This document shows, in pieces, positions 7,867-61,371 of a DNA stretch of 64,000 nt; positions within the stretch are counted from its first letter, which is position 1, and the number at the start of each line of letters is the position of its first letter. Position numbers and translations under genes: made by a program. The stretch is from Candidatus Dojkabacteria bacterium (lineage in GTDB: Bacteria > Patescibacteriota > Dojkabacteria > B142 > OLB20). The notes beneath the pieces are model-generated. The model saw only the letters and a program-made list of their open reading frames with translations, made no database searches and was not told where the DNA came from. The stretch is taken from contig DAOMOX010000001.1 of the NCBI GenBank assembly GCA_035444565.1, positions 130,335 through 194,334 of the forward strand. The letters are read 5' to 3'.

Positions 7867-9303
7867 ATGGACCAAACTCAATTGCGAAATTTCCTAGAAA
7901 TTCCATATGACGAATTACAAAATTTAAATCTAGAAGCTAAAAGACGTTTCACAAATAAAGAATCAGAAACCAGTGTTAGAAAGTACTATATTGATTACTT
8001 AAAAAGCGAACCACGTCTTAAAGCTGTCACTCTATGTTTTTCGGATATAGAAGGACGTTTTCATATGCTCGATTACGACAAAGAATACTTTATTAAGAAC
8101 CTTGATGGACTAACTTTCGACGGTTCATCAATTCGAGGTTTTTCAACGATAGACCAATCCGACCTTCGATTAAAACCTGATTGGTACTCTTTTAGATGGC
8201 TACCTAGTGATGTATTTGGACCAGGAAAAGTTATAATGTTCGGATATGTTTGCGAACAAGATGGTTCACCTTACTCGTGTGATTTTCGATATTCATTACA
8301 TCTCACACTGCAAGAGATGTATAAGAAAAATAAACTAGAATATTTTGTCGCACCTGAACTGGAGGGCTTTTTACTCAGTGGCCAATATGCAGAACAATCA
8401 TTCGATGAGAAAGAAGGTTTCCAGGAAGCATCCGAAGGTGGCTACTATCACACATTACCGACAGACACATTGAAATTATTTATTGATAAAGCCGCAGAAG
8501 CTCAACGTGCGTTAGGATTTGAAAACGAAAAGGATCATCCCGAAGTCGCACCATCTCAGTTTGAACTAAATTTCTCATACACAGACGCATTACTTGCATG
8601 CGATCAAATACAACTTTACAAGCTTGTCTGTCGACAAATTGCACACAATATGGGGATGACCGCATCGTTCTTGCCCAAACCAGTTGTTGGGATTAACGGA
8701 AACGGTATGCATATTAATTTGTCATTACATAAATCTGGTAAAAACTTGTTTTATGACGAGAATGATGAGTCGAAATTATCAAAAACAGCATGGGAATTTA
8801 TATCAAGAATTCTAAACCATGCGAATGACATCTGTTTAATTCTAAATGCTAGTGTAAATGCCTACCGTAGACTTGATCCACATTTTGAGGCACCAAATCA
8901 AATAAAATACTCATATACGGATAGAAGTTCCATGATAAGGATTCCTCTTTCAACACAGAAATCCACTCGCATAGAAATACGCTCTGTAGGTCCTGACACA
9001 AACCCCTATGCAGTAGCACTGGTTCTTTTAAAAACAGGCCTTGAAGGAGAAGACCTTGAGACAGACGAAGATAAAAGACAGCGCACAAGGGTGCTTCCGG
9101 ACTCTATCCAAGATGCTATTAAACAATTCAAGGCATCGGAATTTGTTGGTAATGTTCTAGGAGAATATGCAAAATCAAAGTACGTTGAACAAAAACAAAT
9201 CGTTGCAAATAGAAGCCCAAAAGATCTTGGCAAAACTATTAAAAATGGAGAGGTTTTATACCATCACGAAATCACCAATCAGGTTTTGTGGAATAAATTT
9301 TGA
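7867..9303 (+). CDS. glnA: Glutamine synthetase.
   Basis: KPVVGINGNGMHINLSL resembles the GS ATP-binding region. The 478-aa length fits GS type I. Confidence 0.8.
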   Translation: MDQTQLRNFLEIPYDELQNLNLEAKRRFTNKESETSVRKYYIDYLKSEPRLKAVTLCFSDIEGRFHMLDYDKEYFIKNLDGLTFDGSSIRGFSTIDQSDLRLKPDWYSFRWLPSDVFGPGKVIMFGYVCEQDGSPYSCDFRYSLHLTLQEMYKKNKLEYFVAPELEGFLLSGQYAEQSFDEKEGFQEASEGGYYHTLPTDTLKLFIDKAAEAQRALGFENEKDHPEVAPSQFELNFSYTDALLACDQIQLYKLVCRQIAHNMGMTASFLPKPVVGINGNGMHINLSLHKSGKNLFYDENDESKLSKTAWEFISRILNHANDICLILNASVNAYRRLDPHFEAPNQIKYSYTDRSSMIRIPLSTQKSTRIEIRSVGPDTNPYAVALVLLKTGLEGEDLETDEDKRQRTRVLPDSIQDAIKQFKASEFVGNVLGEYAKSKYVEQKQIVANRSPKDLGKTIKNGEVLYHHEITNQVLWNKF

Positions 9304-32849: not shown

Positions 32850-33261
32850 GGTATTTCATTAATAAAGTATTACTTTATAGTAGACGTAGTGGTCAGAGGA
32901 ATCAATCAATTCGTATCAAAGTCGAGGTTATTATTAGTTTAATTTATTTGATGGAAGAGATAGTATATAAAAGAATATAGTAGAAACTTAAATTTTTACA
33001 AAATTCAACAGATGGAAGGTGCGCCAAGAATAGTCATCATAGAGAATCCAAAAGAGAAGTATGGTGTAGTAGGTGAAGAAATAGCACCGGGAATATATGT
33101 TGTAGTTCCAGTTGATGATCCTTATGCACAAGAAGGCACTTATGATTATCAAGGCGCCGAAAAAAGTCACCATTGGGTACATGAGCCAGAACAGGAGGAT
33201 CAATTTCCAACAGCAAATCCTACTTAAGGAAAATATTTCAACTATATAAAAAACCAATAAA

Positions 33262-33334
33262 TGCGCTGAGCAAGATTCGAACTTGCAACCTACTGCTTAG
33301 AAGGCAGTTGCTCTATCCATTGAGCTATCAGCGC
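33262..33334 (-). tRNA. tRNA-Arg (anticodon UCU). 73 nt, no encoded CCA.
   Basis: Clean cloverleaf: GCGCTGA/TCAGCGC acceptor, GCTC/GAGC D-stem, ACTGC-CTTCTAA-GCAGT anticodon arm, GCAAG-TTCGAAT-CTTGC T-arm. Confidence 0.85.
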
Positions 33335-33351
33335 ATTTATTGCTTTTGTAT

Positions 33352-33504
33352 TACCTACTGCTTATCCCGCTCATTGTATGCGAACTTAGTGAGCATTACA
33401 ATGACGTGGATCCCAATCCTTCACAAATCATATCTACGGGATCCTCGATGATTTATAGACTCGCTCCGCTTCGTCCAAATCATCGGGAGAAGGCAGTTGC
33501 TCTA
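33352..33504 (-). other. Pseudo-copy of the tRNA-Arg D-stem/anticodon-arm/variable region, split by a ~124-nt structured insertion at the anticodon loop.
   Basis: GAGCAACTGCCTTCT (33488-33504) and AAGCAGTAGGT (33352-33364) match tRNA-Arg positions ~22-47 but are separated by an insert. No acceptor or T-arm. Confidence 0.4.
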
Positions 33505-33788
33505 ATCAACTAGAAAATCAGACTTTCATGAACATAGTGAAGTGAAAGGCTAGATTTTCTGTTGTCCCGTACGAACAAAGTGAGATACGGGACCTCTCTT
33601 TATCAGTATGCTATTTTCAAAACATCAGCATTATACCGCTGAATGCTCTCTATTATAATGTTTTTCCCTATTTTTTTCATCTTTTTTCACGGATTCTAAT
33701 ATTTTGCGTTAGAATCCAAAGTTGTCTAAGTGGACAAACAATATAATCACACCAATGCTCTACTCTTTATACATTTTATATAGAGCAT

Positions 33789-60154: not shown

Positions 60155-60237
60155 ATAGATTAGATTAATTAGTGGGAAAGTATAGCATGTGATGAGAAGG
60201 GGTGGAATGTTTCCGATTTAGTCACAAAGCGGGACCG

Positions 60238-60489
60238 ACGGGACTCGAACCCGCAACCTCACGCGCTTGCCCCGTAAGAATTTATTCTGTACGGGGTGAC
60301 AGATAAATAATGTTTACAGGAAAAATGAGAATACGGACAACCATAGACAAAAAAGCGGGACCGACGGGACTCGAACCCGCAACCTCACGCGCTTGCCCCG
60401 TAAGAATTTATTCTGTACGGGGTGACAGATAAATAATGTTTACAGGAAAAATGAGAATACGGACAACCATAGACAAAAAAGCGGGACCG
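60238..60489 (-). repeat. Two tandem 126-nt units. Each is an 89-nt spacer carrying a CCCCGTA...TACGGGG hairpin plus a 37-nt copy of the tRNA-Asp 3' half.
   Basis: 60238-60363 and 60364-60489 are identical. The 37-nt segment equals tRNA-Asp positions 38-74. In tRNA sense the spacer ends CTGTCA-[31-nt hairpin]-C then GCGTG. Confidence 0.8.
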
Positions 60490-60490
60490 A

Positions 60491-60564
60491 CGGGACTCGA
60501 ACCCGCAACCTCACGCGTGACAGGCGTGTGCTCTAACCAGTTGAGCTACAATCCCGCTTTTTTG
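60491..60564 (-). tRNA. tRNA-Asp (anticodon GUC). 74 nt including discriminator G, no encoded CCA.
   Basis: GGGATTG/CGGTCCC acceptor, TA, GCTC-AACTGGTTA-GAGC, CACGC-CTGTCAC-GCGTG, GCGGG-TTCGAGT-CCCGT. Confidence 0.85.
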
Positions 60565-60796
60565 TCTATTCAATTATGAAGAACAATAAAGTCTAATACC
60601 CAAATAAACGAGAGCTATTTATCCTCCGTAGTTTTACGAAGGAGGACAATCCCGCTTTGTGACTATTGACGACTTGTATAGAACGGATAGATTATAGCAG
60701 AATTTGGAGAAAAATATTAAGAGATTGAGAAATTTAGAAACGAAGTAACTCTTTAAGAGAACCTAAGAAATTATTTCTAATTATTAAAATTATTAA

Positions 60797-61164
60797 TGCC
60801 GCGGAGAGCCCAGGATTTAATCCGGGGGAATCCCGTACAAACTTCATTTCACTCGTTTTACGGGACAAGCCTCAAAGGGATTTCTCTCCCGCTAAACTTC
60901 GTTAGCGGGACAAGCCACCACCACCTTTGAAGAGATTAACTAAGTTGCTGCTGCGGAGAGGAGTTTTACTAGTAGTTGATGAACGTAGTGAATCTACTAC
61001 TAGTTATCCCTGCATATATCAGATTCCATTTAACTTTGTCAGGGAGAACCTCAAGTATCCTTAGCTAGTTGAATGATAAATGCTGCGGAGAGCCCCGGAT
61101 CTAATCCGGGGGAACCTCAATCATAATGTTCCCACCACCACCTCAATAAAGATAAACAAGTTGC
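60797..61164 (-). repeat. Three degenerate tandem tRNA-Leu-derived units (pseudo-tRNA fragments) with hairpin insertions.
   Basis: Each unit begins (T)TGCTGC(T)GCGGAGAG, like the tRNA-Leu 3' end. They retain AAGGGATTTCTC and CCACCACCACCT blocks homologous to the intact gene. Confidence 0.5.
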
Positions 61165-61248
61165 TGCTGAGGACAGGAGTTGAACCTGCAAGGGATTTCT
61201 CCCACTACCACCTCAAGGTAGCGTGTCTACCAATTTCACCACCCCAGC
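61165..61248 (-). tRNA. tRNA-Leu (anticodon GAG), class II with a long variable arm. 84 nt.
   Basis: GCTGGGGTGGTGAAATTGGTAGACACGCTACCTTGAGGTGGTAG...GCAGGTTCAACTCCTGTCCTCAGCA is close to E. coli tRNA-Leu architecture. Confidence 0.85.
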
Positions 61249-61371
61249 AGCAATTTGTTTATCCTATCGATTTTATTTACCCTTTGTAGCTTAAACGAAG
61301 AAAGGCCACCACAGCATTTAGTGCTTTAGACAACACCTATTTTATCAAATAATGTGGGAATTCGTTACTAT

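Follow-up and report, generated by a model that had tools for sequence, protein, structure and literature searches.

Hairpin-interrupted fragments beside tRNA-Leu(GAG) of a Dojkabacteria genome as probable remains of very small tRNA-embedded selfish elements

How does an intact tRNA gene come to lie beside three broken pieces of a tRNA of the same kind, each of them interrupted by small hairpins? The question is raised by the tRNA-Leu(GAG) gene in a stretch of 64,000 nucleotides (nt) from a Candidatus Dojkabacteria bacterium (contig DAOMOX010000001.1), which we call the window and in which all positions given without a locus name are numbered. We consider it probable that very small selfish elements, all of one family, repeatedly invaded tRNA-Leu(GAG), and that the array of pieces, or units, is what remains of them without their gene; where tRNA-Leu itself is concerned, the link to an element carrying a GIY-YIG nuclease gene rests on analogy with tRNA-Asp and with other genomes. 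An earlier note on this DNA had described the units as three decaying tandem copies of the gene, lying upstream of it on the plus strand and carrying two inserted hairpins. ARAGORN and Rfam located three tRNAs in the window, all on the minus strand, and since tRNA-Leu is one of them (61248..61165) the units lie 3′ of the gene, the reverse of what the note had supposed. The features of the locus are listed here, with numbers beginning with L for sampled loci.

61304..61315, minus strand: 5′ fragment (positions 1-12, GCTGTGGTGGCC) of a displaced type-B tRNA-Leu(GAG), by comparison with L008, L010 and L012
61280..61305, minus strand: hairpin CCTTTCTTCGTTTAAGCTACAAAGGG, immediately after the 5′ fragment
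61248..61165, minus strand: intact tRNA-Leu(GAG), type A (ARAGORN; Rfam, 49.9 bits)
61242-61263 with 61151-61172: leader/trailer inverted repeat of tRNA-Leu, 22 nt, lengthening the acceptor stem
61081..61146, minus strand: unit 1, positions 33-76 of type-B tRNA-Leu, from the anticodon loop to the 3′ end (nhmmer, E 0.0063)
60949..61054, minus strand: unit 2, T arm and acceptor 3′ fragment, TTGAGGTTC...AACTCCTCTCCGCAGCA (E 6e-4 after insert excision)
60929..60948, minus strand: junction of units 2 and 3, GCAACTTAGTTAATCTCTTC (repeats D3-D5; L004, L011)
60797..60928, minus strand: unit 3, tRNA-Leu positions ~36-76, beginning on the 3′ side of the anticodon loop (E 9e-5 after insert excision)
60887-60914: unit 3 hairpin in the variable arm, CTTG followed by TCCCGCTAA..TTAGCGGGA
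60831-60869: unit 3 hairpin between positions 53 and 54, CTTG followed by TCCCGTA..TACGGGA
60809-60827: unit 3 hairpin in the T loop, CCCCGGATTAAATCCTGGG

Homology of the units to tRNA-Leu was assayed by nhmmer over the whole window, with a hidden Markov model (HMM) of 17 tRNA-Leu(GAG) genes as the query. Unit 1 (61146..61081) matched model positions 33-84 with an E value of 0.0063; with the palindromic inserts excised, at cut points that were picked post hoc, units 3 and 2 gave E values of 9e-5 and 6e-4. The homology is thus beyond chance, and the blocks AAGGGATTTCTC, CCACCACCACCT and TGCTGCGGAGAG by which the note recognized the units are present at the exact unit coordinates that it gave. 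The covariance-model search (Infernal) that it had suggested as a check went the other way: the Rfam tRNA model (RF00005) found no match in 60797-61160, even at E ≤ 10, because a global tRNA model gives no score to partial copies broken by inserts, which is what the units are. The description as tandem copies held in part, in that the partial copies are real, but Tandem Repeats Finder (TRF) called no tandem repeat in 60797-61248. The units lack 5′ halves, and neither the ribozyme core of a group I intron nor the continuous tRNA that excision of such an intron would leave was found. We concluded that the three units are interrupted partial tRNA copies rather than pseudogenes in the tRNAscan sense, each significantly homologous, over a local stretch, to a tRNA gene from its own lineage.

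The inserts themselves are hairpins at defined places in the tRNA. Read on the minus strand, unit 1 runs TTGAGGTGGTgGTGGGA...TGAGGTTC, then the hairpin CCCCGGATTAGATCCGGGG (61093-61111), which sits in the T loop after TTC, and then the end CTCTCCGCAGCA; its variable arm is degenerate. The T loop of unit 2 holds two hairpins, TCCCTGA..CAGGGA (61007-61045) and ACTAGTAGT..ACTACTAGT (60968-61004), and unit 3, whose variable arm is intact (GAGAAATCCCTT), has the three inserts listed above. The three units therefore contain six inserted hairpins rather than the two named in the note, although those two, TCCCGTA..TACGGGA (60831-60865) and TCCCGCTAA..TTAGCGGGA (60887-60910), each followed by CAAGCC on the plus strand, were described exactly and fold at z −3.5 and −4.1 relative to shuffled sequence; three hairpins of the array fall within z −3.5 to −4.1. 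Hairpins with a YCCCG stem are confined, in the entire window, to tRNA fragments beside the three tRNAs. Exact matches to CTTGYCCCG all lie at tRNA loci, and with one mismatch allowed there were 14 in the window against 7.7 expected, no clear enrichment. Copies of the loop motif CTCACTTCGTTC recur only close to tRNA fragments; at three mismatches the window as a whole showed no enrichment of it. Hairpin loops adjoining tRNA fragments of distant lineages also contain a motif resembling ACGAACGAAGTGAGT, which is not enriched in the rest of the window; it occurs in either orientation and on differing stems, at the following places.

L008, 10400-10560: ACGAACGAAGTGAGT-like loop motif
L004, ~8990-9020: the same
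L011, 6613-6647: the same
L046, 960-1300: the same

From which gene, then, did the units come? Syntenic loci were collected by means of the neighbouring gene, which encodes a 562-amino-acid glycosyltransferase-like protein and places the organism in Candidatus Dojkabacteria (Patescibacteria), at 98-40% protein identity. Among close relatives the intact copy is one or the other of two tRNA-Leu(GAG) alleles: the window, L011, L006 and L137 have type A (GCTGGGG...) intact, and L004, L008, L010, L012 and L014 have type B (GCTGCGG...CCTCTCCGCAGCA). The ends of the window units are of type B (CTCTCCGCAGCA), unlike the end of the resident tRNA (TGTCCTCAGCA). The units thus derive from the type-B allele, intact in sister Dojkabacteria, and not from resident type A; they are not copies of the resident gene, as the note had them, but displaced 3′ parts of an allele within which the resident gene is nested. 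The arrangement is clearest in L137 and L138, where positions 1-30 of B, with a hairpin, are followed by a spacer, the leader, intact A and its trailer, a hairpin, and pristine B(33-76), so that the type-B anticodon loop contains the whole of type A, including a complementary leader and trailer of its own. The window, L004, L006 and L011 are variants of this layout, and the 12-nt 5′ fragment occupies the place that the intact gene has in L008, L010 and L012. The displaced B(33-76) survives as unit 1; in units 2 and 3 we propose to see older or duplicated displaced 3′ parts, which have gathered more hairpins.

In L016, L018 and L023 the order is neighbouring gene, tRNA-Leu(GAG), about 90 nt, and tRNA-Asp, which is the ancestral layout. 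The comparison with syntenic loci that the note had recommended gave orthologous units in L004, L011 and L012 and a clean ancestral state, without units, in L010, L014 and L016. In L012 the 3′ end of unit 2 shares a lineage-specific base with the resident tRNA of the same locus (CCACAGCA). The order and number of units differ between the window and L011, which is explained by unequal recombination between repeated 3′ ends, and the junction of units 2 and 3, a duplication of the tRNA trailer (D4/D5 repeats, spaced 216-217 nt), marks an old unequal-recombination period.

Rates of change within the array were compared with fourfold-degenerate sites of the neighbouring gene. Against L004, where those sites are 43% identical, unit 1 was 89% and unit 2 80% identical, and the spacer between these two units 57%. 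Against L011 the corresponding value for the sites was 65%; unit 2 was 99% and unit 3 92% identical to its counterpart, and the intact tRNA was only 86%. The word decaying in the note therefore does not apply. Fragments so far above neutral identity must be either under constraint or exchanged more recently than their hosts diverged.

The note had also pointed to a second tRNA locus with partial copies and the same hairpins. That locus is tRNA-Asp, adjacent to tRNA-Leu, and tRNA-Arg proved to be a third. Their features are as follows.

60219..60665, minus strand: tRNA-Asp sister locus, whole
60653..60646, minus strand: old tRNA-Asp 5′ fragment, 8 nt, GGGATTGT
60645..60622, minus strand: hairpin after the 5′ fragment
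60586..60556, minus strand: 31-nt remnant of the 3′ end of a GIY-YIG open reading frame (ORF)
60555..60481, minus strand: intact tRNA-Asp(GTC) (ARAGORN, Rfam)
60469-60486 with 60552-60569: leader/trailer pairing of tRNA-Asp
33353..33505, minus strand: pseudo-copy of the D arm and anticodon arm of tRNA-Arg(TCT)
33335..33261, minus strand: intact tRNA-Arg(TCT) (ARAGORN, Rfam)
33253-33260 with 33336-33343: leader/trailer pairing of tRNA-Arg
33564-33593: separate hairpin GTCCCGTA..TACGGGAC near tRNA-Arg

At tRNA-Asp the outer leader, TAGTCACAAAGC, pairs with the outer (old) trailer, GCTTTGTGACTA (inverted repeat I5), and the inner, intact tRNA has a different leader/trailer pair (inverted repeat I3); an older copy of the gene encloses the present one. 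The hairpin after its 5′ fragment (CCTCCTTCGTAAAACTACGGAGGA then TAAATA) looks, by eye, like the hairpin CCTTTCTTCGTTTAAGCTACAAAGGG of the tRNA-Leu locus. Two perfect 126-nt repeats, called by TRF, follow the tRNA, each consisting of a spacer, CTGTCAC, the hairpin CCCCGTA..TACGGGG, CAAG and a tRNA 3′ half. Assembly GCA_035444845.1 has one such repeat fewer than other assemblies of the same strain, and the short-read contigs L001 and L003 break there. The last 31 nt of the insert 5′ of the tRNA match the 3′ end of an ORF in L014 (z 7.6, 0/300 shuffles), and the corresponding insert of L012 matches the ORF end likewise (z 10.5). Since its 5′ insert ends in the 3′ end of a GIY-YIG ORF, the window tRNA-Asp locus is a degenerate element, from which the ORF was lost by deletion with its last ~30 nt left behind. 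A weak Rfam match to YrlA (Y RNA-like) at 60297-60414 on the minus strand (23.7 bits, E 0.029, far below the gathering score) was rejected as a candidate RNA, its alignment resting on the T arm of tRNA-Asp within the 126-nt repeat. At the third locus, the pseudo-copy lies 17 nt upstream of intact tRNA-Arg and has in its anticodon loop a 124-nt insert of three hairpins (TCCCG..CGAGGATCC..CGGGA). The architecture of this insert was also seen in the T-loop inserts of L021, L035 and L127 and in the D-arm/anticodon-stem insert of L137.

All three window tRNAs have acceptor stems lengthened by 8-15 bp through pairing of leader with trailer. Such pairing is unusual among bacterial pre-tRNAs. It is native to this clade, because the element-free allele L138 has it as well. 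The ends of the duplicated cassette approximate those of the leader-trailer helix.

Complete elements were found at tRNA-Asp in relatives. In the Dojkabacteria loci L014, L035 and L021 a split tRNA-Asp encloses an ORF of 81-89 codons; two of the three products were scanned against Pfam, and these were GIY-YIG proteins (PF01541, E 3e-17 and 2.5e-16). Among solved structures the protein is closest to UPF0213/SLX1 (PDB 1zg2 and 1ywl, E 2e-15 and 1e-13). Contigs coding an identical copy of one homologue, P0007, vary in the presence or absence of the element, and L137 and L138 provide the direct comparison: they are 99.9% identical up to position 25 of tRNA-Asp and 99.2% identical from about position 66 on, and between these points L137 has 490 extra nt. 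The insert consists of a two-hairpin module (TCCCGA..TCGAGGATCC..), an 85-codon GIY-YIG ORF, a leader-tRNA-Asp-trailer segment of 96 nt that is 100% identical, and a spacer, and in the old 3′ piece the T arm has been swapped for TCCCGCCC..GGGTCGGGA. The tRNA-Asp site is thus occupied in L137 and empty in L138, L139 and L141, with flanks 99.2-99.9% identical. Within the old gene the element sits around the anticodon loop.

The ORFs and tRNAs were seen to overlap. An ORF preceding an intact tRNA reads into it and stops at the conserved U8-A9-G10 (TAG); an ORF following a tRNA takes its last codons from the D arm and hairpin of the tRNA fragment. Examples are these.

L137, 5378-5635: ORF end and stop
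L014, 9143-9397: the same
L035, 9298-9044: the same
L046, 1501-1752: the same

To what extent is this arrangement general? Members of the protein family are numerous in Patescibacteria and in Bacteroidota-like genomes, and all five homologues that were looked up adjoin tRNAs. For the scan of metagenomes an alignment of 24 diverse members was too divergent, and a closer set of six worked, giving more than 600 matches, from which 80 loci were retained. A tRNA was present in 63 of the 80; in 58 the nearest lay within 250 nt, co-oriented with the ORF in all but one (57/58). The tRNAs were those for Asp, Pro, Val, Ala, Gly, Met, Glu, Ser, Phe and Cys. Behind the ORF the 3′ tail of the tRNA is repeated exactly, tandem arrays of ORF plus fragment also occur, and the fragment after the ORF is typically a tRNA from the D arm on, with a hairpin precisely in place of the anticodon arm. 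In 54 of 77 loci a YCCCG..CGGGR hairpin starts between −30 and +120 nt from the ORF end, and 135 such hairpins were observed compared with 16 ± 4 in shuffled sequence. In a set of 55 distinct hairpins most start with TCCCG and end with CGGGA and a few start with CCCCG; covariation is seen in the inner 1-4 bp, and most of the loops measure 2-8 nt. Hairpins recur at a second place as well, in the T loop, either following TTC or at 53/54; these are the sites used in window units 1-3, with the match noted for units 1 and 3. Locus L046 has ORF remnants between pseudo-tRNA-Gly copies and also a tRNA-Leu(GAG) 3′ fragment with T-loop inserts. In Daviesbacteria (L051, 1420-1935) we observed an intact tRNA-Glu(CTC) together with a second full-length copy bearing two TCCCG..CGGGR hairpins in its D loop, and the same two hairpins in a 5′ fragment upstream of the GIY-YIG ORF. 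The family is nearly absent from viruses, with three partial matches in 2.9 million viral contigs. Rfam at permissive thresholds, applied to the region and to 12 element loci, returned only tRNA matches apart from the weak YrlA. The core view of the note holds, in that an active process, and one specific to tRNAs, was at work here, not chance; the same layout around a small GIY-YIG gene at the adjacent tRNA-Asp and in many other genomes shows what that process probably is.

We propose the following mechanism. In its complete form, a structure shown at tRNA-Asp of relatives, the element has an ORF of about 85 codons for a stand-alone GIY-YIG nuclease, structured hairpins of the YCCCG...CGGGR type, and a tRNA in replacement of the one that it breaks, be it a whole copy whose own leader and trailer pair or just the part that would be lacking. 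It lands in a resident tRNA gene near the anticodon loop, splitting the old gene into flanking 5′ and 3′ pieces and leaving the cell with one working tRNA. The nuclease may cut element-free tRNA genes, the break then being repaired from the element-bearing copy (homing), with the tRNA halves serving perhaps as portable homology arms; the replacement tRNA would let an essential single-copy gene be the target. By the same homing route the type-A tRNA-Leu cassette could have entered type B. The hairpins that interrupt the old halves might confer immunity to cutting or leave the halves too short to recombine the element away. Unequal recombination between repeated tRNA ends amplified and reshuffled the units.

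Several observations weigh against this reading of the tRNA-Leu array. No GIY-YIG ORF or significant remnant of one was found in the window or the array by tblastn or by a profile search of translated upstream regions, and a DNA-level search upstream of tRNA-Leu gave one weak match only, between L004 and the ORF end of L052 (z 4.0, p 0.01 over 45 tests). The presence/absence polymorphism seen at tRNA-Asp was not seen for tRNA-Leu, nor was an ORF-bearing element found nested in a tRNA-Leu(GAG) gene; because of this last result the tRNA-Leu case rests on the shared architecture, the shared hairpins and the adjacent tRNA-Asp locus. The replacement tRNA in L137 is identical to the target, and therefore immunity by simple destruction of a recognition site fails to explain how the new copy is spared. 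The protein is the catalytic domain only, without the DNA-binding domain of classical GIY-YIG homing enzymes, and its nuclease activity is a prediction from sequence. Lastly, conservation of fragments and hairpins well above neutral fits poorly with inert scars.

That last point is what favors the explanation that the units, whatever their origin, are selected RNA or DNA elements, acting as processing or termination signals for the tRNA-Leu transcript, as decoys, or as non-autonomous elements mobilized in trans. Unit 1 at 89% and unit 2 at 80-99% identity, against 43-65% at fourfold sites and about 55% in spacers, are as this explanation predicts, and compensatory changes keep stems paired, both in the tRNA-Asp hairpin of the window, L012 and L008 and among the 55 hairpins. 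We nevertheless regard it as rather unlikely, as no Rfam family matched, L010, L014 and L016 do without units altogether, and recent horizontal exchange of elements would yield high identity as well; whole units have too few orthologues for covariation to be assessed. Tandem duplication of the ordinary kind, through slippage or through unequal crossing-over with a breakpoint in the tRNA gene, followed by neutral decay and by unrelated palindromic insertions, would account for the perfect 126-nt repeats at tRNA-Asp and their varying copy number between assemblies of the same strain, for the old ~217-nt period in the tRNA-Leu array (D3-D5), and for the difference in unit order between the window and L011. 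It leaves unexplained the nested order of 5′ piece, full gene and 3′ piece with differing inner and outer leader-trailer pairs (I3 versus I5; L137), the origin of the fragments from the other allele, the recurrence of YCCCG..CGGGR hairpins at identical tRNA positions beside GIY-YIG ORFs in unrelated phyla, and the above-neutral conservation. As a full account we therefore consider it unlikely; unequal recombination is real, but secondary to invasion by the small elements.

Displaced 3′ fragments from the anticodon loop or T arm are also the classical attachment (att) signature of tyrosine-integrase elements (PMC9897764; PMC4383910), and the array could in principle be the scars of prophages, islands or cis-mobilizable remnants that inserted at anticodon-loop and T-loop sublocations, restored the 3′ part of the tRNA and were later deleted. 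The variable cargo genes between tRNA-Leu and tRNA-Asp in L008, L010 and L014 would suit such a history. The region around the two tRNAs is indeed a hot spot of cargo genes (L008 8121-10127; L010 8661-9914; L014 5754-8998; L011 5748-6308), whose content varies even between genomes with 98% identical neighbouring gene products and which have no Pfam match except for one weak match to M48 peptidase. But Pfam, on those ORFs beside the arrays and in the cargo that were scanned, found no integrase or transposase domain; the polymorphic L137 insert is 490 nt and codes only for the GIY-YIG protein and a tRNA; and, whereas an island would separate the regenerated tRNA from a 3′ part of identical sequence, we found fragments that match the other allele, units merely 66-132 nt apart, and 5′ fragments besides. 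Integrase scars are thus a very unlikely source. An assembly artefact, suggested by the break of short-read contigs L001 and L003 at the 126-nt repeat, or a chance low-complexity similarity is already refuted for the tRNA-Leu array and can in our opinion be set aside almost entirely: the array was 100% identical in three independent assemblies from separate runs, L004, L011 and L012 have orthologous units, and the nhmmer E values ran from 0.006 to 9e-5. Four other candidates were rejected. Retro-copies of mature tRNA would not contain trailers and lack CCA, as these copies do; archaeal-type (bulge-helix-bulge) introns or split tRNAs do not fit with an intact tRNA that is always present and fragments without partners; group I introns had no match to any Rfam intron model; and the units are tRNA fragments, not the spaced identical repeats of clustered regularly interspaced short palindromic repeat (CRISPR) arrays. 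Invasion by small tRNA-embedded elements thus remains the reading that we prefer.

How does such an element relate to known systems? Phage T4 has in its tRNA gene cluster a free-standing GIY-YIG homing endonuclease, SegB, whose cleavage site is in a related phage (PMC2330249) and which also drives segmental amplification (PMC13096335). The likeness is that a GIY-YIG gene lies among tRNA genes, is co-inherited with flanking tRNA sequence and is linked to local tandem amplification; SegB, however, is phage-borne and has a DNA-binding region, whereas the present protein is chromosomal, has 81-89 amino acids and the catalytic domain only, and its ORF lies inside a split tRNA gene with a replacement tRNA and conserved hairpins. 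Integrative elements that target tRNA genes (Islander, PMC4383910; PMC9897764) likewise restore the gene, leave a displaced fragment at the junction, break in the anticodon loop and T loop and can accumulate in arrays, but here no integrase was found, the element, about 0.5 kb long, brings a whole tRNA together with its leader and trailer, there are fragments to either side, and YCCCG..CGGGR hairpins stand in place of arms of these fragments. Group I introns with GIY-YIG genes in the anticodon loops of bacterial tRNAs (PMC3984707) resemble it as selfish, GIY-YIG-associated insertions at that loop which leave tRNA function intact; in the present case there is no ribozyme (no Rfam intron match), and function is kept by a second gene copy, not by RNA splicing. 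From these three systems the element is set apart by its minimal, domain-only nuclease, by gene replacement, and by its conserved, hairpin-substituted pseudo-tRNA pieces.

REP/MITE-like repeats (repetitive extragenic palindromic sequences and miniature inverted-repeat transposable elements) are also short GC-rich hairpins in noncoding DNA, but the window hairpins occur only in tRNA fragments, at defined tRNA positions, and their copies are non-identical, the constant part being the outer 5 bp only. The distal repeats of the Escherichia coli tyrT operon, 178-bp units each with the last ~19 nt of tRNA-Tyr, resemble the array in that a tRNA gene is followed by tandem units repeating its 3′ end. 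The tyrT repeats are not known to contain hairpin inserts, a nested gene or a 5′ fragment, nor to be linked with a nuclease gene. The UPF0213, or prokaryotic Slx1-like, stand-alone GIY-YIG proteins have the same minimal domain as the present protein; they are treated as minimal GIY-YIG proteins in PMC1564403, which does not mention an association with tRNA genes. We found no description of tRNA-embedded small GIY-YIG elements in the searchable literature, which omits most subscription journals, so that a prior description is possible, and the literature searched gave no account of the bacterial role of the UPF0213/Slx1-like stand-alone proteins.

It is tempting, but at present no better than a tentative suggestion, to see in these cassettes an unrecognized class of mobile element in Patescibacteria and Bacteroidota-like lineages, in which a minimal Slx1-like, structure-specific nuclease would act on tRNA-gene DNA or on the TCCCG/CGGGA hairpins, the replacement tRNA would permit an essential target, and the fragments without an ORF would be under selection, as non-autonomous partners mobilized in trans or as structures protecting against cutting or recombination. 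If elements of this kind do account for the array, the large UPF0213/Slx1-like stand-alone GIY-YIG family would gain a testable role and a candidate substrate, tRNA-gene DNA and a hairpin whose TCCCG/CGGGA base is nearly invariant, and the occupied and empty alleles of L137 and L138 supply the sequences for a direct test. The tRNA fragments that confuse annotation in these genomes, the different alleles of the same tRNA in close relatives, and the breaks of short-read assemblies at tRNAs would then also be explained. The tRNA genes of small-genome bacteria would be a battleground for a minimal selfish element which, on invading an essential single-copy target, brings a spare.

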